64,000 nucleotides of DNA. Source: SAR202 cluster bacterium bin16. Its GTDB lineage: Bacteria; Chloroflexota; Dehalococcoidia; Lucifugimonadales; Australimonadaceae. The DNA lies in contig MPMJ01000004.1 of the NCBI GenBank assembly GCA_002238425.1, positions 37,454 to 101,453 on the forward strand, in the 5' to 3' direction. The translations under genes and the position numbers were made by a program. The notes under the pieces are model-generated. The model ran no database searches, had not been told where the DNA came from, and was given only the letters and a program-made list of their open reading frames with translations. Every line of letters starts with the position of its first letter. The first letter of the stretch is position 1. This document shows, piece by piece, positions 12,736-64,000 of the stretch.

Positions 12736-12851
12736 CCGAACCGGTGAACAGGAACCGGACGGGAGGCAGAGACCGAGCAGAGGGCATAGGCGGACGAGGG
12801 ACGGGAACCGGACAGAGGCAAGGAACGAAGGGTAGGCGAACCAGGCAGGAC

Positions 12852-15707
12852 ATGGCTGACGAGATTACGATCACGATAGACGGGCAGGAGGTCACGACGA
12901 CCCCCGGCAAGATGGTGGTGCAGGCCGCCAACGACGCCGGCATCTACGTGCCGTACCTCTGCTACCACCCCGGCATGAAGCCGTACGGCGCGTGCCGCAT
13001 GTGCGTCGTCGAGGTCGAGGGTCAGCGCGGTACGCCTGCGTCCTGCACGTTGCCGGTCCGCGACGGCATGGTCGTGAACACCAAGGGCGACGAGGCAGTG
13101 AAGGTGCGGGACACGACGCTTGACCTGCTGCTGTCGGAACATCCACACGGATGCTTGACATGCCACCGGATAGACCTGTGCGGCCCGCAGGACATCTGCC
13201 TGCGGCACGTGGATGTGGTCGACCGGTGCGTGACCTGCCCGAAGAACGAGCGCTGCGAACTGAAGGACACCACGCGCTTCCACCCGCAGGAGCTGGTCTC
13301 CCCGCTCACGTACCAGTACCGCAACCTGCAGGTGGAGACGAAGGACCCGTTCTACGACCGCGACTACAACCTCTGCATCGTCTGCGCGCGCTGCACGCGG
13401 GCGTGCGACGAACTGCGCGGCGACGTTGCGATAGGCATGACCGAGCGCGCGGGACAGGTGCTCGTCGGCACGGTGATGGGCGACTCGCTCCTCGAGTCCG
13501 GCTGCGAGTTCTGCGGCGCGTGCATCGATGTCTGCCCGGTGGGCGCGCTCACGGAGACCTCCTACAAGTGGGAGCGTCCGGCGCGCGTCGAGCAGTCGGT
13601 CTGCGCCGAGTGTCCCGTCGGCTGCACGATGACCTACGAGGTCAACCACTGGGAGCGGGTCGTGCGCGCGGTGCCGGAGCTGAACTCCCCGGCGAACATG
13701 GGGCAGGCGTGCTTCCAGGGCAAGTTCGGGTTCGAGTACGTCAACGACAAGCGCCGCATCCGGAAGCCGCTCGTGCGCCGGGACGGCGAGCTGCAGGAGG
13801 CCACGTGGGACGAGGCGATAGCCGCCGCGGCCGAGGGGCTTGCGCAGTACAAGGGCTCGACGTTCGCGCTCATGGCGAACCCTCGCAACACCAACGAGGA
13901 GCTCTACGCCGCGCAGAAGTTCGCGCGCGCCGTCATGGGCTCGAACAGCGTCGACGTGGCGTCGAACGACCGCCCCGGCACGGTCGAGGGACTGCAGGAC
14001 GTGTTCGGCTACTTCGCCGGTACGATGACCACGTGGGAGCTTGCCGACTCCGCCGCCGTCATGGTGGTGAGCGCGAACCTCACTGAGGAGCAGAACGTCA
14101 TCGGCGTGCCGATCAAGCGGGCGGTCCGCAACGGTACGCAGCAGCTCATCGTCATCGACTCGCGCGAGGTCGAGCTGACGCGGTATGCGTCGCTCTGGCT
14201 GAGGCCGTACCCGGGCACCGACCCCGTCCTGCTCGGCGGGCTGCTGCGCTGCATCGTCGACAACGGGCTGGCGGACATGGAGTTCGTCAACGAGCGCGCG
14301 GAGGGCTGGGACGAACTGGCCGCCTGCCTCGCACCGTTCACGCTGGACGCGGTCGCCGCTGAGACCGGCGTGTCCGCGGCAAGCATCGAAGAGGCAGCGC
14401 GCGTCTACGCCGGGTCTGGCGCCTCGGCGCTGCTGCTGGGCGGCGACGGTTCAGTCGGCGGCACGCGGCGGACGATGTCGCGGATGGCTGCCGGGCTCGC
14501 CATCGCCACGGGCAACGTGGGCAAGCGCGGCGCGGGCGTCATGCCGCTCTACCAGGGCGCGAACGGGCAGGGCGCGTGGGACATGGGCATCTGGCCGGGA
14601 GCGACGCCCGGTCACAACCTCATCCAGGAAACGCCGGAGGCCCGCGAGGCGCTCGGCGCGCTCTGGGGCGCTCCCGTGCCGCTGGAGATCGGCTCAGGCA
14701 ACCGTCACATGTTCGACCGGGCTCGCGAAGGCGCGATCAAGGCGATGCTCGTGCTGGACGACCACGTCCACTACGAGGACGGCACGCTCGGCGATGTGAC
14801 GGGCGGGCTCGATGCGCTGGAGTTCCTCGTGGCAACGAGCGCGTTCCCGTCGGCGGTCACGGAACGGGCGGACGTCGTCTTTCCCGCCGAGGTATGGGCC
14901 GAGAAGACGGGCACGTACACGAACATCGAGCGTCGTGTGCAACCGCTCCGCAAGGTGGCGAAGAACAAGCGCGTCGACTCGCGGAGCGACCTCGACGTGG
15001 TCTGCGCCATCGCGGGCGCGATGGGAGCGCGGGGCTTCTCGTGGGACGGCCCGGCGCAGGTACTCGACGAGATAGGGCAGGCCGTGCCCGAGTACGCCGG
15101 CATCTCCTGGGAGCGCCTGCTTCGCGAGCGGCTCGACATCGTGACGACTCCCAGTGATGAACCGCAACCGACGCAGGTGATGTACACAGGCAACGTGCTC
15201 ACCGGCCTCCAGTGGCCGTGTGCGGCCGAGGGTTCGGCAGATGAACCTGAGATGTTCGTAAGCCGGTTCCGGCACGGCAAGGCGCAGTTGCAACCCGTCG
15301 CGTGGCACCCGCGCCCCACAGCCGGTGCGGAGTTCCCGCTGATGCTTGCGCATGGGCGTGTGCTCCTGGAGCCGGGCCGCAAGCCGAACGTGACGGTGGT
15401 CGGCAAGCGCAACCGTGTGGAGCGCGAGGAGCGCTTCGTACTCAACCCCGCGGACGCCGCCGCGGCCAGGCTCGGCGAGGGCGACGCGGCCTCGGTGACG
15501 ACGGCTGACGGCAGCGAGCGTCGCGGCGTGGTCGCGCTCTCGGACGCCGTGCCCGCGGGCGTGGTGTCGCTGACGACGCTCTTCGGCGAGTTGGCGGTCG
15601 AGGTCGACTCCTCCGACCGCCCTGACCCCATGAATCACATCGCCCGGCTGAACGCCGTGCCGGTACGTATCGCGGCCACGTCCCACGCCGGTTCACCCTC
15701 ACCCTAG
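12852..15707 (+). CDS. NuoG/FdhA-like molybdopterin-oxidoreductase-family subunit with N-terminal [2Fe-2S]/[4Fe-4S] domains
   Basis: ORF 12744..15707 trimmed to ATG 12852 (MADEITITIDGQEVTTTPGKMVVQAANDAGIYVPYLCYHPG..GACRMCVVEV). Fe-S cysteine clusters are followed by MopB and C-terminal beta-barrel-like regions. Confidence 0.85.
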   Translation: MADEITITIDGQEVTTTPGKMVVQAANDAGIYVPYLCYHPGMKPYGACRMCVVEVEGQRGTPASCTLPVRDGMVVNTKGDEAVKVRDTTLDLLLSEHPHGCLTCHRIDLCGPQDICLRHVDVVDRCVTCPKNERCELKDTTRFHPQELVSPLTYQYRNLQVETKDPFYDRDYNLCIVCARCTRACDELRGDVAIGMTERAGQVLVGTVMGDSLLESGCEFCGACIDVCPVGALTETSYKWERPARVEQSVCAECPVGCTMTYEVNHWERVVRAVPELNSPANMGQACFQGKFGFEYVNDKRRIRKPLVRRDGELQEATWDEAIAAAAEGLAQYKGSTFALMANPRNTNEELYAAQKFARAVMGSNSVDVASNDRPGTVEGLQDVFGYFAGTMTTWELADSAAVMVVSANLTEEQNVIGVPIKRAVRNGTQQLIVIDSREVELTRYASLWLRPYPGTDPVLLGGLLRCIVDNGLADMEFVNERAEGWDELAACLAPFTLDAVAAETGVSAASIEEAARVYAGSGASALLLGGDGSVGGTRRTMSRMAAGLAIATGNVGKRGAGVMPLYQGANGQGAWDMGIWPGATPGHNLIQETPEAREALGALWGAPVPLEIGSGNRHMFDRAREGAIKAMLVLDDHVHYEDGTLGDVTGGLDALEFLVATSAFPSAVTERADVVFPAEVWAEKTGTYTNIERRVQPLRKVAKNKRVDSRSDLDVVCAIAGAMGARGFSWDGPAQVLDEIGQAVPEYAGISWERLLRERLDIVTTPSDEPQPTQVMYTGNVLTGLQWPCAAEGSADEPEMFVSRFRHGKAQLQPVAWHPRPTAGAEFPLMLAHGRVLLEPGRKPNVTVVGKRNRVEREERFVLNPADAAAARLGEGDAASVTTADGSERRGVVALSDAVPAGVVSLTTLFGELAVEVDSSDRPDPMNHIARLNAVPVRIAATSHAGSPSP

Positions 15708-21116: not shown

Positions 21117-21914
21117 ATGGTGCGAGAGGCCGAGCGGGCAGAAGCGGACGGCAAGGCGGAGATAAGCCTTGCGGAGCAGTTCGCGCTGCACCCGGAGATG
21201 GACGAGCCGGAGGAGTTCCTCGGCGGGCCGTACAACCTCTCGGTGTGGCAACCGAAGGACCCCGAGCATCGCCAGTTCCAGCAGAACGCGCCGAGGGCCG
21301 GCGAGCCGATGCCTGACTTCACGCTGCCGCTGCTGGACGGGGGCGAACTGACGCTGTCGTCGCTGCGTGGGAAGCCGGTGATGATCGAGTTCGGCTCCGT
21401 CACCTGACCGCCATGCGTGGCGGAGTCTCCGTCCATGGAAGACCTTGCGAACAGGTACGCAGACGACGCGCACTTCCTGTTCGTCTACACGCGGGAGGCG
21501 CATCCCGGCGAGCACTACCCGCCCATCCACTACTATGAGCAGAAAGTGCTGCACGCACGTTCGTTCAGGGAGCGGCTGGGGATCGGGCGCACCATCCTCG
21601 TGGACTCGGTGCAGGGGAAGGTGCACCGGGTGTTCGGCGGCGTATCGAATATGTCGTGGATCGTCGACCACACGGGACGCGTTGCATACCGGGCAGCGTG
21701 GACGGTTGCCGACGACATCGAGCGCGCGCTCCAGGAGGTGCTGCGAGCCCGGATGCTGAAGCGCGAGGGGCAGCCCGCGGCGGTGTTCTACCGGGAGATC
21801 GTGGGTCTGCGTACGATGCGCGAAGGGCCGCCGGACGGGCTGCCGCGATACATGGGCGGCGAGGTCGCTGCGCGGCAGTTCGAGGCCGCCCGCCGCAAGA
21901 CGGAACGGGCGTAG
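21117..21914 (+). CDS. Iodothyronine-deiodinase-like thioredoxin-fold protein with in-frame TGA (candidate selenocysteine) at 21405-21407
   Basis: ORFs 21087..21407 and 21417..21914 share one frame and are separated only by TGA plus 3 codons. The read-through gives ..GKPVMIEFGSVT-U-PPCVAESPSMEDLANRYADDAHFLFVYTREAHPGEHY. Start taken at ATG 21117 (gggagg RBS 6 nt upstream), with ATG 21087 as an alternative. Confidence 0.75.
21419..21433 (+). promoter_or_regulatory. Candidate bacterial SECIS hairpin (6-bp stem, GUC loop) 11 nt after the UGA
   Basis: ggcgga-guc-uccguc pairs as G19-C33, G20-U32, C21-G31, G22-C30, G23-C29 and A24-U28. The geometry is the same as at 34485-34499. Confidence 0.55.
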
Positions 21915-26513: not shown

Positions 26514-26575
26514 GGGGGTATGCTACAACAGGTATACTCACCCCAAGCGCCTTGTCTCGGCGCTTCGGAGGCCGC

Positions 26576-26809
26576 ATGCCGATGAAGTGGCAGGACTACA
26601 TATCCACCGACCCGACGGTGTGCCACGGCAGGGCCTGTATCACCGGTACGCGGGTGATGGTTACGGTCATCCTTGACAGCCTGGCGGAGGGTTTAGAGGC
26701 GGAGGAGATCGTGGCGCACTATCCGTCTGTACCGCGCGAGGGCGTGCAGGCAGCCCTGCTCTATGCCGCCGAGCTGGCGAAGGAACGCGTCGTGCCGCTG
26801 GGCGCATAG
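26576..26809 (+). CDS. DUF433-family antitoxin-like protein
   Basis: DPTVCHGRACITGTRVMVTVILDSLAEGLEAEEIVAHYPSVPREGVQAALLYAAE is the DUF433 pattern. The ORF opens at 26552 and I prefer the ATG at 26576. Confidence 0.7.
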   Translation: MPMKWQDYISTDPTVCHGRACITGTRVMVTVILDSLAEGLEAEEIVAHYPSVPREGVQAALLYAAELAKERVVPLGA

Positions 26810-26821
26810 GGGCGGCGTTCT

Positions 26822-27175
26822 ATGCGAGTGAAGCTTGACGAGAACCTGCCGGTCCAGTTCAAGCGCCTGTTCACTGAATCCGGTCACGAGGCGGACACGG
26901 TTCTCGACGAGAACATGGGCGGCGCAACGGATGCCGAGATTGCGGCCACCTGCCTCGCTGAAGGCCGCGTGCTTGTGACGCAGGACCTCGATTTCGCTGA
27001 CATCAGGGCGTACCCACCCTCGGAGTATCCAGGCATCGTCGTCTTCCGGCTGTCCAGCCAAGGGCGAGGCCAACTCCTCCAGGTCGGCGCCGCCCTTATC
27101 CAGACGTTGGCTAGGTCATCGCCGGCGGGACAGCTCTGGGTAATAGAAGACGCGCGGGTGCGCATCAGGGAGTAG
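26822..27175 (+). CDS. DUF5615 / PIN-like putative toxin
   Basis: MRVKLDENLPVQFKRLFTESGHEADTV...GATDAEIAATCLAEGRVLVTQDLDFADI is the Mut7-C/PIN-like pattern that usually pairs with DUF433. Confidence 0.65.
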   Translation: MRVKLDENLPVQFKRLFTESGHEADTVLDENMGGATDAEIAATCLAEGRVLVTQDLDFADIRAYPPSEYPGIVVFRLSSQGRGQLLQVGAALIQTLARSSPAGQLWVIEDARVRIRE

Positions 27176-29045: not shown

Positions 29046-30437
29046 ATGAGCCCCATAGTGCGTGGGCTGACGATGCTTTACCTGACGACGATCCTGCTCG
29101 GGTTCGCGCACGGGATGCTGCCCCCTATCATCCCGGTCCTTGCGAACGAGTTCCACATCTCAGGAGGGTTCGCGGCGCAGGTGGTCACCGCCTTCACCGC
29201 GGGGCGGCTGATCGGCCAGCCGGTCGGCGGAACGCTGATCGACAAGTTCGGCACGAAGCCGGCGGTCATCGGTGGGCCAATCATCATCGGAATCTCGGTA
29301 TCGATCGGTATCGTGACGCCGTGGTTCTGGCCGTTGCTCTTGGGGCTGTTCGTTGCGGGCGCCGCGGACAGCGTCTGGATGCTGGGACGTGAGGTTGCAG
29401 GCGTGGACCTGGTGAAGGCGAACCAGCGCGGACGGCTCATGAGCGGGTTCATGGGTTTCCACGGCGTGGGAATGGGACTCGGGGCGTGGCTGGGCGGGAC
29501 CGTGGGCGAGGAGATGGGCGCAACGGTCGTGTTCGGCATCTACACCGCTATCGCGGCGTTCGTCTTCTTCATCAGCGTGCTCATCCCCAGCGCCGACCGG
29601 CCGAAGGCCGCTCCTGCCGCAAGGCTCCCGGTCGAGGACGTCAGGGAAGGGAGCCAACTGGACCGCGTGCGCAACCTCTATCTGCAGATCGACCCGCGCC
29701 TCAGGGCGACGTACATCGTGCTGGTGTTCGCGACGGCGAGCATGATGCTCTACCGCATGGCGTACCAGGCCATCCTGCCCCTGCACATGGACGAGATCGG
29801 GCTGGACCCCAGCCAGATCGGCGAACTCTTCGCCGTCGTTGCCATCGGCTCGCTGGTGATGATCGTGCCGGCGGGGTTCGTTGTGGACAAGATCGGGCGG
29901 AAGTGGGCGACCGTGCCGAGCACGGCGATACCCGGCATCGCCTTCCTGTTCATCCCGTTCACGGGCGACATGGGGCCGCTCATCGCGATAGCCGTGCTCA
30001 TGGGCTTCTCGAACGGACTGTCACTGGGGTCGGTCGCCACGTCCACGTACGACGTCGCGCCGGATGCGATACGCGCGCGGCTGCAGGCGGCGCGGCGGAC
30101 GGTCGCGGAGGTGGGCGCCATCACGGGCCCGCTGCTCGGCGGGTTCATCGCGGTGCAGTTCGGAGCGGGTACTGCATTCTTCGTGTACGCGCCGGTGTTG
30201 CTCCTGGCTGCGATACTGTTGCTGTTCGTCGCCCGCGAGACGCTCGTGAAGGTCTCGGCCGCCGCAGCGTCCCTCGGGAACGGAGAACCCGTCTCCGGCC
30301 TCGCGCTCCTGAAGTCGATTCCGGTGCTGCTCATCGGCGCTGCGCTGCTGGTGTTCGTCGCGCGGAGCAGGCGGACGAAGCGTCTGACGGATGAGGGTTC
30401 CCGCGACCGCAGCGCCGCAGGTGCGGACCGCTCGTGA
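29046..30437 (+). CDS. MFS transporter
   Basis: 463-aa ORF with about 12 predicted hydrophobic helices and the MFS loop motif [17 protein letters not shown]. Confidence 0.85.
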
Positions 30438-30577
30438 TACGGGGCCTCGCGCAGCGCACGCCGTTCTACTACGGGGGGGTCGGCGCTGGGGCGGGGGTGG
30501 TGCCCGTGGTGGATGCGGGGCCCGGCGCGGGCCACGCCGTTCTACTACGGGTGGGTCGTCGCTGGTGCGGTGCTGAT
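30436..30577 (+). repeat. Direct duplication (about 66 bp, about 80% identical, 75-bp offset) of the 5' end of the second MFS gene
   Basis: Copy 1 is gatacggggcctcgcgcagcgcacgccgttctactacgggggggtcggcgctgg (30436-30500). Copy 2 is gatgcggggcccggcgcgggccacgccgttctactacgggtgggtcgtcgctgg (30511-30577). Confidence 0.7.
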
Positions 30578-31760
30578 GACGATGACGATCAGCGGGGCTG
30601 TCGCCGCCCCGATGTTCAGCGTCTTCATCCCCCGGTGGTCGGACGAGTTCGGCTGGTCGCGCACGGCCATCTCCGGCGCGTTCAGCTTCGGGACGGTCGC
30701 AGCCGCGCTGGCAGGGCCGCTGGTCGGCAGGGCGCTCGACAAGTACGGCGGGCGGTGGGTGATGGGTGGCGGCGGGCTGCTCATGGCGGCCTCGGTTGCG
30801 GGACTGGGGTTCGTGGGGAACCTCGTGGGCCTCTACGCCGCGCTCGTGGTCGCGCGAACGGCGTTGATGAGCATCCAGAACCTGGGCGGGCACACGGTCA
30901 TCGCCAACTGGTTCGTGCAACGGAGGGCGTTCGCGACGGCGGTCGCGGTGAACGGAAGCCGCCTGGGGCTGGGGCTGTGGCCGCTGCTGGGGGCCGCGCT
31001 CATCGCTGTGATGGGCTGGCGGGAGGCGCTGTGGATGGTCGGCGCGCTCATGGCGCTGTTTTCGTTCTTCCCGCTCATCGCCATCGTGTCGCGGCAGCCG
31101 GAGGACGTGGGGCTGTACCCGGACGGGCGTCCACCGCTCCCTGCCCACGAGGCCCAGTCGCGACAGGTGCGTGCCGAGCACCAGTGGCGTCCACGGGAGG
31201 CACTGCATACGCATGCGTTCTGGTTGTTGCTGTTCGCGCACATGGGCGCGATGGTGGCGGGCGGGGGCTACGGCCTGCACCGCATACCGCTCTTCCTCGA
31301 CCGGGGCCTCGCGGAAGGGTGGGTAGGGCCGGTGCTGATGTTCCACGCGGTGGGCATGCTCGTCGGTGGGTTCGTCGCCGCATGGTTCATGGGACGCACG
31401 TCCTACCGCGTCGTCATCGCGGGGTGCATGGCGGGCGCGTCGGCGGCGATGGCGGCTGCAGGTTTCATTCCCCCGGGTGTGCCGATGGCCGTCTTCACGT
31501 TTGCGGAATCGATGGTTTTCGGCGGCGTTTTCGCGATGTTGCCCGTCGTTTACGCCGAATATTTCGGGCGCGACTCGCTTGGAACGATACGAGGTATCGC
31601 GCATCCGGCGGTGGTGGCGTCGAACGCGGTCGGGCCGGTCTTCGCGGGATACGTGTTCGAATCGTCGGGGGCGTACACGATGGCGCTCGTTACCTTCAGC
31701 GTCGTGTTGGGCGTGGGGGCAGTCAGCGCGCTGCTGGCGCGCCGCCCGGTCCTGCGCTGA
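30513..31760 (+). CDS. MFS transporter (second, oxalate/formate-antiporter-like layout)
   Basis: 415-aa ORF with 12 hydrophobic segments and an AGPLVGRALDKYGGR loop motif. Confidence 0.85.
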   Translation: MRGPARATPFYYGWVVAGAVLMTMTISGAVAAPMFSVFIPRWSDEFGWSRTAISGAFSFGTVAAALAGPLVGRALDKYGGRWVMGGGGLLMAASVAGLGFVGNLVGLYAALVVARTALMSIQNLGGHTVIANWFVQRRAFATAVAVNGSRLGLGLWPLLGAALIAVMGWREALWMVGALMALFSFFPLIAIVSRQPEDVGLYPDGRPPLPAHEAQSRQVRAEHQWRPREALHTHAFWLLLFAHMGAMVAGGGYGLHRIPLFLDRGLAEGWVGPVLMFHAVGMLVGGFVAAWFMGRTSYRVVIAGCMAGASAAMAAAGFIPPGVPMAVFTFAESMVFGGVFAMLPVVYAEYFGRDSLGTIRGIAHPAVVASNAVGPVFAGYVFESSGAYTMALVTFSVVLGVGAVSALLARRPVLR

Positions 31761-31912: not shown

Positions 31913-32176
31913 ATGACCACTCACGTTCACGAGCATGACCACAGCGAAGCGGGTGACCACTGCCACGAGCACGAGGGCGAGCATTGCCATAGCCATGGCG
32001 ATGTGCACTGCCACGAGCACGGCGCGGGCCACTGCCACGTCCACGGCGACGAGGCATGCGCGTCCCTCGGCGGGGGCGAGCAGTTCGACGAGCACGGCGC
32101 CGAGCACTGCCACCAGCACGGCGAGGAGCACTGCGCGGACGCGGACGACCCGCACCACGCACCCCACGCAGCGTAA
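31913..32176 (+). CDS. Small His/Cys-rich metal-binding protein with repeated (D/E)HCH motifs
   Basis: 87 aa: MTTHVHEHDHSEAGDHCHEHEGEHCHSHGDVHCHEHGAGHCHVHGDEAC...EHCHQHGEEHCADADDPHH. Strong RBS. I recognise no family. Confidence 0.7.
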   Translation: MTTHVHEHDHSEAGDHCHEHEGEHCHSHGDVHCHEHGAGHCHVHGDEACASLGGGEQFDEHGAEHCHQHGEEHCADADDPHHAPHAA

Positions 32177-33698: not shown

Positions 33699-33774
33699 AT
33701 GTCCGGCGCCGACAACGCGATGCTCGCTTGCCGTTGCGTTCCCCGCCTCGTAACCTTCCGCTCGGAGGTGGGTT

Positions 33775-34599
33775 ATGGCTGACTATCCCCGGAACGACCT
33801 GCTCGTCGAGACCGGCTGGCTCGCGGAGCATCTGACGGACCCGAACGTACGCGTCATCGAGATGGCGCAGGACGGCAGCGACTTCGAGGCCGGGCATATC
33901 CCCGGCGCGGCGCTCTCGCCGACCTGGCAGGTCAAGGGCTCGGAGCAGAAAAGGCTCGTCGCGCCGCCGGACGAGGCGAAGGCGTGGTTCGAGTCCGTGG
34001 GTATCGGCGACGACACGCTCGTCGTGGGGTACGACCGCTTCCACAGCCGGGACGCATCGCGCCTCTGGTGGGTGCTGAACTACTACGGACACACCAACGT
34101 TCGCGTCCTGAACGGCGGGTGGACGAAATGGATCGCGGAGGGGCGCGACGTCGAGGCCGGCCCTTCACAGGTGACCGGCGGCGGCGTGACCTTCACTCCG
34201 CAGCCTCCGAACCATGACATCGAATCGGACGTCGACAAACTCAAGGCCGCGGTTGGCGCGGACGACACCGTCATCTGGGACGTGCGGACGGAGGACGAGT
34301 ACACGGGAGCGAACTCGCGCGGCAACGCTCGGGTAGGGCACGTGCCCGGCGCGGCGTTCCTGGAGTGGGTGCATCTCGTGGCGGACGACGACACCTTCAA
34401 GTCCGCGGAGGAGATCGAGGAGATAGCGCGCGGGCTCGGCATCACGCCGGAGAAGACGGTCCACGTCTACTGACAGGGCGGGGTGCGTGCGTCGCACGCC
34501 ATGCTCGCCCTCAAGCTCATCGGCCACGAGTCTGTGTGCATGTACGACGGCTCGATGGGCGAGTGGGCCAACCGGGACGATACCCCGCTGGAGGTGTAG
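33775..34599 (+). CDS. Two-domain rhodanese (thiosulfate/3-mercaptopyruvate sulfurtransferase family) with in-frame TGA (candidate selenocysteine) at the active-site position, 34471-34473
   Basis: ORF 33775..34473 stops at ..EKTVHVY-TGA. The same frame continues QGGVRASHAMLALKLIGHESVCMYDGSMGEWANRDDTPLEV to TAG at 34597-34599. The TGA occupies the catalytic Cys of the rhodanese C-x-x-G-x-R-(S/T/A) loop. Confidence 0.8.
34485..34499 (+). promoter_or_regulatory. Candidate bacterial SECIS hairpin (6-bp stem, GUC loop) 11 nt after the UGA
   Basis: gcgugc-guc-gcacgc gives perfect Watson-Crick pairs between 34485-34490 and 34494-34499. An outer helix agggcg/cgcccu (34475-34480 / 34506-34511) encloses it. 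Confidence 0.6.
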
Positions 34600-46018: not shown

Positions 46019-47041
46019 ATGGGAGTGCCTGCCTCACAAGCGTGGACAGTTGCGTCTCACGTCATCAGGCAACGTTTGGCGGGACGCAAACGCTATCCGC
46101 TCGTGCTCATGCTGGAGCCGCTGCTGCGCTGCAACCTCGCATGCGCGGGGTGCGGGAAGATCCAGTACCCGCCGCACGTGCTTAAGCGCGCGCTCACCGT
46201 CGAGCAGTGCCTGGCCGCGGTGGAGGAGTGCGGCGCTCCCATCGTCAGCATCCCCGGCGGAGAGCCGCTGCTCTACCCCCACATCGGGGAGCTGGTTGAA
46301 GAGTTGACCCGCCGAAAGAAGTACGTTTACCTCTGCACCAATGCCCTGCTGCTCAGGGAGAAGTTGGAGCAGCACGCCTTCACTCCCTCGAAATTCCTCA
46401 GCTTCAGCGTGCACATGGACGGCCTCCGCGAGGAGCACGACGCGTCAGTCTGTCGCGACGGCGTGTACGACATCGCTGTCGATGCGATACGGGAAGCCGT
46501 CCGGCGAGGCTTCCGCGTCACCACCAACACGACGCTGTTCAACACGTCCGAGCCGATGCGCGTCCGCGATTTCTTCGACGCGATGATGGACCTCGACGTC
46601 GAGGGCATGATGGTGTCGCCGGGGTACAGCTATGAGAAAGCCCCGGACCAGGACTCATTCCTGGAGCGCGGACGAACGCAGGAGCTATTCTCCGAGGTGC
46701 TCGCGGGCAGGAAGAAGCGCTGGCGGTTCAACCAGTCGCCGCTCTTCCTCCAGTTCCTCATGGGCAAGCGCGATTTCGAATGCACGCCGTGGGGCAACCC
46801 GCTCTACACGATCTTCGGATGGCAGCGCCCCTGCTACCTGCTGCAGGACGGCTATGCCGCCACCTTCCGGGAGCTGATGGACGAGACGCCGTGGGAAGAG
46901 TATGGGCGGGAGAGCGGCAATCCTCACTGCCAGGACTGCATGGTGCACTCCGGGTACGAACCTACCGCCGTCCATGCGACGTTCACGACCTGGCGCGGTC
47001 TGCGCGACTCCGCCGTTGCCACGCTCACTGGCAAGCTGTGA
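46019..47041 (+). CDS. hpnH: Adenosyl-hopene transferase (radical SAM) HpnH
   Basis: GRKRYPLVLMLEPLLRCNLACAGCGKIQYP contains the CxxxCxxC radical-SAM cluster. The conserved HpnH body includes WGNPLYTIFGWQRPCYLL, and the gene lies next to shc. Confidence 0.9.
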   Translation: MGVPASQAWTVASHVIRQRLAGRKRYPLVLMLEPLLRCNLACAGCGKIQYPPHVLKRALTVEQCLAAVEECGAPIVSIPGGEPLLYPHIGELVEELTRRKKYVYLCTNALLLREKLEQHAFTPSKFLSFSVHMDGLREEHDASVCRDGVYDIAVDAIREAVRRGFRVTTNTTLFNTSEPMRVRDFFDAMMDLDVEGMMVSPGYSYEKAPDQDSFLERGRTQELFSEVLAGRKKRWRFNQSPLFLQFLMGKRDFECTPWGNPLYTIFGWQRPCYLLQDGYAATFRELMDETPWEEYGRESGNPHCQDCMVHSGYEPTAVHATFTTWRGLRDSAVATLTGKL

Positions 47042-48093: not shown

Positions 48094-50076
48094 GTGACCT
48101 GCATGGAACACCGCGTTCGCAAGGCGTTGGAGCGGACGCAAGAGTACTTCTTCCGCACGCAGGACCAGGACGGCTACTGGTGGGGTGAGCTGGAGTCCAA
48201 CCCGACCATGGAGGCGGAGTACATCATGCTCACGCACTTCATGGGGTCGGACGAAGGCGGCCGCATCACCCGCGTCGCGGAAGACATCCGGCGCAGGCAA
48301 TCTGGGGACGGCTCCTGGCGGATGTACTACGGCGCGCCCGGAGACCTGAGCACGTCCATCGAGTGCTACTTCGCGCTCAAGCTCGCCGGCGACCCGGCCA
48401 ACGCTCCCCACATGGCGCGGGCGCGCGCCTTCATCCTCGCCCAGGGCGGAGTGCCCCAGGCGCGTGTATTCACCAGGATATGGCTCGCTCTCTTCGGCCA
48501 GTGGGACTGGAAAGGGACGCCGGCCATGCCCCCGGACATGATGCTGCTGCCGAAGTGGGCGCCCTTCAACATCTACCGCTTCGCGAGCTGGGCGCGCGCG
48601 ACCATCGTGCCGATGACCGTCATCCTCACGCTCCACCCCACGCGCCCTCCGCCCGAAAGCGCATGGGTCATGGAGCTCTACCCGGAAGGCCCCGTTACGT
48701 TCACGCTTTCACGCCGCAAGGCGAAGCCGTTCTCCCTCAAGGGAGGGTTCCTGCTCCTGGACAAGGCGCTGCGGGTCTATCGCAATCTGCCCTTCATCCC
48801 CGGCCGGGAGCGGGCGCTCAGGGCAGCCGTCGACTGGATCGTCGAGCATCAGGAGGCGGACGGCTCGTGGGGAGGCATACAACCGCCCTGGGTCTACTCG
48901 CTCATCGCGCTGAGCGCCCTCGGATACCGGCTGGACCACCCGGTTGTCGCGAAGGGGCTGGAGGGCTTCAGGCAGCACTGGAGCCTCCCGTCGGAAGACG
49001 GCAAGGCGCTCAGGGTGCAGGCGTGTCTCTCGCCCGTGTGGGATACGTGCCTGGCGATGCGCGGGCTCCTCGACTCCGGCGTGCCGCCCGACCACCCGGG
49101 CATCCGGCGCGCCGCGGCCTGGCTCATCCGCGAGGAGATACGGGTCAAAGGCGACTGGGCCGTCTACCGTCCGCATCTCGAACCCAGCGGATGGGCGTTC
49201 GAGTTCGACAACGTCCACTATCCGGACATCGACGACTCAGCCATCATCGTGACCGACCTCGCGCTCGCGCGGATGAACGACGACGCAGGCGAACGGGCCA
49301 GAAGGGCGTCTGTCGACCGCGCCGTCGCGTGGCTGACGGGCATGCAGAGTTCGAGCGGGGGATGGGCCGCGTTCGACTGGAACAACGAGTCCCACGAGCT
49401 GGCGGAGATCCCGTTCGCCGACTTCGGCGAGCTCCTGGATCCGCCCAGCGTGGACGTCACCGCGCACGTGCTGGAGATGTACGGCATGCTGGGATACGGG
49501 ATGGACCATCCGCCCGTACGCCGGGGGCTCGCCTACATATGGGACCAGCAGGAGCACGACGGCGCGTGGTTCGGACGTTGGGGTGTGAACTACGTCTACG
49601 GCACGGGCGCGGTGCTCCCTGCGCTGCAAGCGCTGGGAGTGGACATGACGCAGCCCCGCGTCCGCCGTGCGGTCGAATGGCTCCTCGCGCACCAGAATAC
49701 GGACGGCGGATGGGGAGAGACCTGCGTCAGCTATCCGGACCCCTCGTTGCGCGGGCAGGGCGAGAGTACGCCCTCGCAGACATCGTGGGCGCTCATCGCG
49801 CTCATCGCGGCGGGTGAAGCGCTCAGCGAGTCCGTCGAGCGGGGCGTCGAGTTCCTCCTCCAGCGTCAGCAGGACGACGGAACGTGGGACGAGCCGCAGT
49901 TCACGGGGTGCGGCTTCCCCGGCTACGGCCCCGGCAACCAGCCCGAGAGGTACGAACCGCTCGACGACCCGAACTCGCAGGGGCCGGAACTGAGTGCTGC
50001 GTTCATGATCAACTACCACCTCTACCGCAACTACTTCCCGCTCTGGGCGCTGGGGCGGTACGCGCAAGCGCTCTAG
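48094..50076 (+). CDS. shc: Squalene-hopene cyclase
   Basis: Multiple QW repeats (QDGYWWGE, QSGDGSWR, QEADGSWGG, QSSSGGWAAF, QEHDGAWFGRWG, QNTDGGWGE, QQDDGTWDE) and the catalytic D-x-D-D motif PDIDDSAIIV. Confidence 0.95.
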   Translation: MTCMEHRVRKALERTQEYFFRTQDQDGYWWGELESNPTMEAEYIMLTHFMGSDEGGRITRVAEDIRRRQSGDGSWRMYYGAPGDLSTSIECYFALKLAGDPANAPHMARARAFILAQGGVPQARVFTRIWLALFGQWDWKGTPAMPPDMMLLPKWAPFNIYRFASWARATIVPMTVILTLHPTRPPPESAWVMELYPEGPVTFTLSRRKAKPFSLKGGFLLLDKALRVYRNLPFIPGRERALRAAVDWIVEHQEADGSWGGIQPPWVYSLIALSALGYRLDHPVVAKGLEGFRQHWSLPSEDGKALRVQACLSPVWDTCLAMRGLLDSGVPPDHPGIRRAAAWLIREEIRVKGDWAVYRPHLEPSGWAFEFDNVHYPDIDDSAIIVTDLALARMNDDAGERARRASVDRAVAWLTGMQSSSGGWAAFDWNNESHELAEIPFADFGELLDPPSVDVTAHVLEMYGMLGYGMDHPPVRRGLAYIWDQQEHDGAWFGRWGVNYVYGTGAVLPALQALGVDMTQPRVRRAVEWLLAHQNTDGGWGETCVSYPDPSLRGQGESTPSQTSWALIALIAAGEALSESVERGVEFLLQRQQDDGTWDEPQFTGCGFPGYGPGNQPERYEPLDDPNSQGPELSAAFMINYHLYRNYFPLWALGRYAQAL

Positions 50077-63478: not shown

Positions 63479-64000
63479 TCAGGGAGTGCCGGCGAGTTGC
63501 AGTGCGAGTGTTGCCGGGTCGTGGGCGGGCAGATCGCAGACGTAGCCGTGGCAGACGTAAGCGGTGGGCGCAGCCGCGCCGGCGCGTCCCTCAAGCAGCG
63601 GCGTGAGGAACGGCGACACCTCGCCCGGGGCCAGCCCCACGAATGCGAATGATGGCAGCCGCTCCCGCAGCGGCGCCAACAGCGAGCGAGCGCCCTCGCC
63701 GGACGGGTCTCCGGTGACGACGACCTCCGTAGGCGGCGCGAGGTAACGGTCGATGATCCGCAGCCAGTTCCCGAACCCCAGTGGATAGCGCGCCGCGAGC
63801 GGTGCGACGCCCCGGATGAGGCGCTCCGCCTTCTGTGCGAGCGACTCGTCGCCCGTAAGTACGGCCATGCGCAGCAGCGCCTCGGCGGCTGCCGAGCTGC
63901 CGCACGGCGTGGCGTTGTCCGTGATGTCGCGCGGGCGCACGATCAGCTCCTCGTGGTCGGAGCCCACGTCGTAGAACACGCCTTCGTCGTCGTCCCAGAA
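63479..64000 (-). CDS. YyaL/SSP411-like thioredoxin-domain protein, C-terminal part (5' end outside window)
   Basis: The frame is open to the window edge. ..DNATPCGSSAAAEALLRMAVLTGD... and ..AYVCHGYVCDLP match the six-hairpin glycosidase-like C-terminus of the DUF255/YyaL family. Confidence 0.7.
   Translation of the reverse strand, partial: FWDDDEGVFYDVGSDHEELIVRPRDITDNATPCGSSAAAEALLRMAVLTGDESLAQKAERLIRGVAPLAARYPLGFGNWLRIIDRYLAPPTEVVVTGDPSGEGARSLLAPLRERLPSFAFVGLAPGEVSPFLTPLLEGRAGAAAPTAYVCHGYVCDLPAHDPATLALQLAGTP

Follow-up and report, generated by a model that had tools for sequence, protein, structure and literature searches.

Does an in-frame TGA end a sulfurtransferase gene, or does it encode the residue on which catalysis would depend? 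A 64,000-nucleotide (nt) stretch of the SAR202 cluster bacterium bin16 genome (contig MPMJ01000004.1), hereafter the window, contains a gene for a two-domain rhodanese whose annotated open reading frame (ORF) starts at ATG 33775, runs for 232 codons and ends ...EKTVHVY-TGA at 34471–34473. Beyond the TGA the same frame reads QGGVRASHAMLALKLIGHESVCMYDGSMGEWANRDDTPLEV, 41 sense codons that close with TAG at 34597–34599, exactly as described in a first-pass annotation of the window that proposed a selenoprotein. Our analyses indicate that 33775–34599 very probably encodes a two-domain rhodanese whose catalytic residue is selenocysteine (Sec), translated from UGA 34471–34473.

The UGA and the catalytic cysteine column

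PF00581 (Rhodanese) matched two stretches of the read-through product (E=5e-32, Pfam), and the C-terminal stretch, residues 153–266, runs across the TGA, bearing out the earlier proposal that the codons after it form the normal end of the catalytic domain. Third-position GC was 0.89 upstream and 0.93 downstream of the TGA (window GC, 66%), values far beyond chance that mark the frame as translated on both sides. In the N-terminal domain, Asp87 occupies the ‘YD’ position at which a catalytic domain would have cysteine (Cys), marking this domain as the inactive one typical of tandem rhodaneses.

We compared the read-through product, with Cys placed at the UGA, with solved structures in the PDB using phmmer. 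Over residues 4–273 the product matched 1UAR (E=5e-43), 3HWI/3AAX (8e-35) and 1E0C (5e-33), deposited as ‘Rhodanese’, ‘(putative) thiosulfate sulfurtransferase’ and ‘sulfurtransferase’, from Thermus thermophilus, Mycobacterium tuberculosis and, in the case of 1E0C (RhdA), Azotobacter vinelandii. Residue 233 aligned with the active-site Cys of these enzymes (vyCqggvRas in the window product against vyCriaeRss in 1UAR and ayCrigeRss in 3HWI/3AAX) and with the Cys column of the CQGG[IV]RA motif in full-length Cys homologues. Homology to the solved proteins is full length, with the same two-domain layout and a catalytic residue that opens a six-residue loop ending in Arg-Ser/Ala; the solved proteins differ in using Cys and share only ~35–40% identity with the window protein. 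The nucleophile is thus the first position of the six-residue loop of the C-terminal domain, here Sec encoded by UGA, and the alignments to homologues and structures confirmed the first-pass placement of the TGA at the catalytic Cys of a COG2897/SseA-type sulfurtransferase.

The loop itself, UQGGVRA, differs from CRIAERS (1UAR) and CRIGERS (3HWI/3AAX); that of RhdA is CQTHHRS. Classical thiosulfate sulfurtransferases (TSTs) have the loop CRKGVTA and 3-mercaptopyruvate sulfurtransferases (MSTs) have CG[ST]GVTA, and the loop UQGG[VI]RA fits neither. Because the protein also scored only 118 bits against a cut-off of 250 for the 3-MST equivalog NF008557 (NCBIfam), homology assigns it no substrate class. 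A second Cys, Cys254 (34534–34536, ...ESVCMYDG...), lies 21 residues past U233 and is kept only in the window’s own sub-clade (loci L001–L026, V/A-C-M/V-YDG), the position being Arg or Lys elsewhere; Cys254 is a candidate resolving Cys that could form a selenenylsulfide with U233.

We then examined the column in two collections of relatives: a genome set with one genome per species (80 loci from Dehalococcoidia/Chloroflexota/SAR202 metagenome-assembled genomes (MAGs), Tepidiforma and two Ca. Entotheonella) and a metagenome set seeded with Cys forms (73 parsed loci). TGA occupied the column in 72 of the 80 genome loci, down to ~45% identity, and Cys in the remaining 8; the metagenome set had TGA in 50 of 73, TGC in 20 and TGT in 3. 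This amounts to 122 TGA against 31 Cys forms, although the loci are phylogenetically related and the counts are not independent events. In every TGA genome locus the frame continues past the TGA for 40–47 conserved codons. Across 37 aligned post-UGA codons in 71 orthologues there were no stops, and the ratio of nonsynonymous to synonymous substitution rates (dN/dS) was 0.26; a value of 0.60 for the 40 codons before the TGA was discarded as a comparison because that region has indels and was not codon-aligned. Among 5.8 billion proteins, the ~100 closest clusters (93% to 55% identity) have 230–238 residues and span 85% of the query, whereas full-length homologues (271–289 residues) turn up only from ~52% identity downward, and the short homologues all end in ...xY, one residue ahead of the CQGG[VI]RA column.

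These data bear on two explanations that dispense with Sec. According to the first, the UGA is a real stop, and the gene is either a pseudogene cut short or the source of a 232-residue protein that lacks an active site, with the 41 codons as untranslated remnants. Every public gene call does end here (for example, MCY4448203.1, 232 amino acids (aa)), and other genes of the window use UGA as an ordinary stop, but the TGA and its downstream frame persist in all 122 loci without stops or frameshifts, with the low dN/dS and high third-position GC given above. Moreover, the downstream part has neither its own start codon nor its own ribosome-binding site, and termination would cost the protein its entire active-site loop and all residues beyond, an objection already raised in the first-pass annotation and upheld by the structure alignment. 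The orthologues retain TGA and a conserved, stop-free frame and are not decaying pseudogenes, and we regard a real stop as extremely improbable. According to the second explanation, the TGA is a sequencing or assembly error for TGC or TGT. A single nucleotide separates TGA from TGC, but the identical 825-nt gene, TGA included, is present in four independent assemblies (JGI, NCBI (two) and ENA), which argues against a sequencing error, and TGA recurs in 72 species genomes and 50 metagenome contigs, accompanied by a hairpin and a codon bias specific to UGA forms (below); the probability of such an error is practically nil. Together, the conserved TGA, the stop-free frame and the identical assemblies exclude pseudogene, sequencing error and plain termination for practical purposes.

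The nearest loci are the Dehalococcoidia MAGs L004 and L006, whose neighbouring genes are 97–99% identical. Across the metagenome and genome loci, L095 (TGC) and L057 (TGA) encode the same protein apart from this codon, and the hairpin is intact in both, so that L095 looks like a very recent switch from Sec to Cys that has retained a fossil Sec insertion sequence (SECIS).

A SECIS-like hairpin downstream of the UGA

Directly after the UGA, the message can fold into a 37-nt stem-loop with a minimum free energy (MFE) of −23.5 kcal/mol (z=−3.1; 2 of 200 shuffles were equally good). The bacterial SECIS model of a 2026 review specifies a loop of 3–9 nt with G in its first two positions, an upper stem of 4–16 bp, a distance of 16–37 nt from the UGA and an MFE of at most −7.5 kcal/mol (PMC13188914). 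The GUC loop, 6-bp stem, 17-nt spacing and folding energy of the hairpin agree with all four constraints outlined there, and the loop starts with G followed by U, as the model asks. In most relatives the apical loop is GGC rather than the GUC of the window. The model bacterial SECIS of Böck and colleagues, that of Escherichia coli fdhF, is likewise a hairpin directly 3′ of the UGA within the ORF; its small apical loop, ~20 nt from the UGA, contains G-U, and a U is bulged out of its upper stem on the 5′ side. It differs in its loop, which is GGUC at +22 to +25 where the window has GUC at +21 to +23, and in stem sequences that are unrelated.

Several observations, besides the relatedness of the loci counted above, weigh against assigning the hairpin and its UGA to Sec insertion. 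An 81-nt stretch around the UGA had z=−1.3, and only the 37-nt element clearly beat the shuffles. Rfam, in gathering and permissive modes, returned no SECIS family match on the hairpin, a negative that is uninformative because no bacterial SECIS model responded. The Sec genes selA, selB, selC and selD were not found in the 64-kb window or in a total of ~1 Mb of flanks of related loci: ARAGORN and Rfam found only a tRNA-Lys in the window, ARAGORN and tblastn over the window and the 80 loci (with E. coli SelA, SelB and SelD queries) gave one weak GTPase-domain match, in locus L029, and Pfam searches of 20 window proteins, among them the ones similar in length to SelA, SelB or SelD, recovered none of the three. 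The genes around the rhodanese are syntenic only in close relatives and supplied neither an operon partner nor a functional clue. Finally, the hairpin overlies the conserved peptide GG[VI]RA[AS]H, and its conservation is therefore partly at the protein level; for this reason we sought signals specific to RNA.

Such signals were evident. RNAalifold independently predicted just the apical helix, in which 98.3% of cells were paired across the 72 TGA forms, with compensatory changes at two pairs (15–29: CG in 48, GC in 16 and AU in 2; 19–25: GC in 64 and UA in 2). All six apical pairs were complete in 69 of 72 TGA forms of the genome set and 43 of 50 of the metagenome set, compared with 0 of 8 and 1 of 23 Cys forms. 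The Arg codon in the stem, whose third-position U pairs with the A of a His codon, was CGU in 70/72 and 45/50 TGA forms but in only 1/7 and 1/23 Cys forms, and CGU makes up 7.9% of Arg codons in the window. The first apical pair joins the wobble base of a Val/Ile codon to the middle base of the ninth codon past U, and the proteins accordingly show the combinations V...A, I...G or I...V, a coupling through which the RNA constraint becomes visible as amino-acid covariation. The SECIS check suggested by the first-pass annotation thus recovered a SECIS-like hairpin together with covariation and constraint at synonymous sites. The seven TGA forms of the metagenome set that lack the standard hairpin carry, when read by eye, a shifted one with G-U in the loop (for example, CAGCGC-AGUCU-GCGCUG and GAACA-GUU-UGUUC). 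The shifted hairpins, also placed by eye, lie 5–8 nt farther from the UGA in the sub-clades of L065 and L087–L089 and of L058, L113, L119 and L123, a distribution that suggests remodelling of the SECIS within one protein family.

The hairpin also speaks to leaky read-through, in which a near-cognate tRNA (Trp, Cys or Arg) would decode the UGA independently of any SECIS and yield little full-length protein. UGA is the leakiest stop codon and a following C, the next base here, favours read-through. However, leakiness leaves the UGA-specific hairpin, its covariation and the CGU bias unexplained, fails to account for why UGA always stands in place of Cys, and would produce an inactive enzyme wherever Trp or Arg entered the catalytic position, making it a very improbable explanation. 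What we observe is a UGA conserved in the Cys column, selection on the frame downstream and a covarying hairpin specific to UGA forms.

Recoding, proposed mechanism and a second UGA gene

UGA serves as the stop codon of 8 of 28 confident window genes, indicating a standard code without reassignment in which the rhodanese UGA is recoded locally. We considered whether a SECIS and a SelB-like factor might recode the UGA but insert Cys from a Cys-charged tRNASec-like tRNA; Mukai et al. reportedly described such Sec-to-Cys recoding systems in some bacteria in 2016. The conserved UGA, SECIS and downstream frame fit this explanation equally well, and the Cys and Sec forms swap freely at the codon, as in the L095 and L057 pair. 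The mechanism is nevertheless rare, a second gene in the window with a UxxC motif belongs to a family catalogued as true selenoproteins, and SelA and SelD, which are needed only for making Sec, are among the COGs reported for SAR202 bins from sponges: Table S4 of that sponge-microbiome study lists SelA, SelB and SelD in all five SAR202 bins and in the other Chloroflexi bins (PMC5649159), and one of those bins has a GC content of 65.6%, near that of the window. Chloroflexi are also known to possess tRNASec (PMC5389517), and these reports support a Sec machinery indirectly. Insertion of Cys is highly unlikely, though the least improbable of the alternatives to Sec.

We infer dependence on SelB and tRNASec, which residue is inserted and which substrates are used, drawing on the known bacterial pathway of Sec insertion and on analogy with Cys rhodaneses. 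The hairpin at 34475–34511 would act as the SECIS, its GUC loop and bulged U recruiting SelB·GTP·Sec-tRNASec to the ribosome when the UGA reaches the A site; after insertion of Sec, the ribosome would read on for 41 codons to the TAG. The enzyme would then follow a double-displacement cycle in which Sec233 takes a sulfane sulfur from a donor (for example, thiosulfate or 3-mercaptopyruvate), giving an enzyme Se-S(H) intermediate that hands the sulfur to a thiophilic acceptor. The low pKa of the selenolate and its better leaving-group character would make both half-reactions faster and help the enzyme to resist irreversible over-oxidation.

The first-pass annotation had pointed to a second, independent active-site UGA in the window, and this too proved to be conserved. 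The gene, with a thioredoxin fold, reads ...GKPVMIEFGSVT-U-PPC... around its TGA and matched NF038285 (deiodinase_rel) with E=3e-26, below the cut-off; its database homologues are called only as the post-UGA fragment (157–168 aa), and distant full-length relatives carry PF00837. Deiodinase-like UxxC selenoproteins appear in two marine surveys and in the family list of the 2026 review (PMC1088965, PMC2398784, PMC13188914). Locus L085 (72% identity) keeps both the TGA and the adjacent GUC-loop hairpin, and its 2.38-Mb contig also bears a Sec-rhodanese orthologue, P0017. With the U of the UGA taken as nucleotide 1, the GUC loop of both window genes begins at nucleotide 21, the identical spacing predicted if a single SelB reads both elements (Table 1).

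Table 1. Positions in the window of the rhodanese gene, the deiodinase-like gene and their predicted recoding elements
Feature	Position	Strand	Remarks
Two-domain rhodanese-type sulfurtransferase gene, predicted complete selenoprotein	33775..34599	+	274 codons, U at codon 233, plus TAG
Shine-Dalgarno-like GGAGG	33764..33768	+	6 nt before ATG; read from sequence
N-terminal rhodanese domain	33796..34155	+	Residues ~8–127; Pfam and alignments; boundaries approximate
C-terminal catalytic rhodanese domain	34231..34572	+	Residues 153–266; Pfam profile positions 2–101 of 102
In-frame TGA, read as Sec codon U233	34471..34473	+	Occupies catalytic Cys column
Active-site loop U-Q-G-G-V-R-A (UxxG motif)	34471..34491	+	Aligned to Cys rhodaneses
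41 post-UGA codons (helix, beta-strand, YDGSMGEWANRDDTPL tail)	34474..34596	+	Complete the catalytic domain
SECIS-like stem-loop	34475..34511	+	Begins four nt past UGA; 37 nt
Hairpin lower stem	34475–34482 with 34504–34511	+	
Hairpin pair across bulged U34484	G34483–C34500	+	
Hairpin apical stem GCGUGC/GCACGC	34485–34490 with 34494–34499	+	
Hairpin apical loop GUC	34491–34493	+	Nucleotides 21–23 from U of UGA
Deiodinase-like thioredoxin-fold gene, predicted second selenoprotein gene	21117..21914	+	Start uncertain: 21087 or 21117
In-frame TGA of deiodinase-like gene	21405–21407	+	FGSVT-U-PPC
Hairpin of deiodinase-like gene	21416–21437	+	GUC loop 21425–21427, +21 to +23

Other in-frame TGA candidates were rejected. 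The TGA at 30435 separates two adjacent same-frame major facilitator superfamily (MFS) transporter genes (29046–30437 and 30513–31760, + strand), and a candidate at 63650 was without coding support. The window also encodes, at 12744–15707 (+), a 987-aa NuoG-like and molybdopterin oxidoreductase protein that resembles the formate dehydrogenase alpha subunit; it has no in-frame TGA and appears to be of the Cys or non-Sec type, though this enzyme class often carries Sec.

Family membership, public annotation and neighbouring genes

Sargasso Sea data yielded 15 new selenoprotein families in 2005, among them a ‘rhodanese-related sulfurtransferase’ (COG2897) containing Sec, known there from 3 sequences (PMC1088965). 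The Global Ocean Sampling (GOS) survey of 2008 counted 8 Sec against 3,367 Cys forms of the same family, cd01449 (PMC2398784), and in the review’s family list it appears under ‘form 4, UxxG’, represented by a MAG accession (PMC13188914). The window gene shares with this family the PF00581/COG2897-type tandem rhodanese architecture, Sec in place of the catalytic Cys, the UxxG motif (U-Q-G-G here), a bacterial-type SECIS within the coding region and a marine, metagenomic source; its likeness to the published representatives AACY01016424 and MCY3690685.1 rests on domain, motif and family description. The window gene is an unannotated member of this known selenoprotein family. The two settings differ in frequency, the Sec form being rare in the ocean surveys but the majority in the Dehalococcoidia-centred clade (72 of 80 species). 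NF041203 (rhodanese_LYCAU), the review’s form 3, is also a rhodanese-fold selenoprotein, but a single-domain one with a CxU motif; we rejected membership of the window protein in it (35 bits against a cut-off of 115). None of the NCBIfam models covers the UxxG Sec form.

In public databases the window product is the 232-residue entry MCY4448203.1 (‘rhodanese-like domain-containing protein [Chloroflexota bacterium]’), which shares its MCY accession prefix with the review’s representative, and the ~100 orthologue clusters are deposited as 230–238-residue ‘rhodanese-like’ or ‘sulfurtransferase’ proteins without an active site. With these truncated deposits and no NCBIfam model, metabolic reconstructions of SAR202/Dehalococcoidia and of sponge symbionts miss a selenoenzyme and under-count selenium dependence. 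Spurious ORFs of 32–38 aa have been called in the post-UGA part of three loci (L081, 10727–10825; L083, 10709–10825; L084, 2167–2265), and the 274-aa protein P0096 is 93% identical to the query over just 47% of its length and departs from it past residue ~125, as though a different frame had been called. The Sec codon is the cause of these annotation artefacts.

The modestly new elements are the dominance of Sec in the Dehalococcoidia-centred clade, the detailed SECIS with its covariation and the systematic truncation in public annotation; the value is mostly practical. With their aligned SECIS elements, the 122 UGA and 31 Cys forms make a clean natural experiment, which shows how a SECIS that overlaps an active-site loop limits the choice of codons as well as of amino acids, and with what ease Sec and Cys swap; general knowledge of selenoproteins is left unchanged. 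A bolder proposal, which we consider unlikely, is that in a large radiation of Dehalococcoidia/SAR202-type Chloroflexota, and in Ca. Entotheonella, this sulfurtransferase has Sec as its majority state, possibly also as its ancestral one, and that the chemistry of the paralogue depends on selenium. Many of these bacteria are apparently associated with sponges. The protein could then be specialised for carrying Se-S or Se-Se (perselenide) groups in sulfur/selenium trafficking, as opposed to a generic Sec-tolerant rhodanese.

The neighbours of the rhodanese gene encode the two MFS transporters, a His-rich cation-diffusion-facilitator (CDF) transporter, a SIMPL/DUF541 protein, signal peptidase I, the tRNA-Lys and an amidohydrolase. 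Synteny was rejected as a source of function because it is limited to close relatives. This also holds for the two histidine-rich genes directly upstream, an 87-aa His/Cys/Glu-rich protein without a Pfam match (31913–32176, +) and the CDF transporter (PF01545; 32283–33647, +), which has a ~150-aa N-terminal extension of HDHD/HEGH repeats. Farther off, a gene for a radical S-adenosylmethionine (SAM)/DUF3463 protein (46019–47041, +) lies near one for a squalene-hopene cyclase (48094–50076, +), a pair that suggests a hopanoid biosynthesis locus. At 26552–27175 (+) there are two small genes that resemble a toxin-antitoxin pair and are labelled DUF433/DUF5615 in the matching loci L081–L083, and an aspartic-protease-like gene adjoins this pair on the minus strand.

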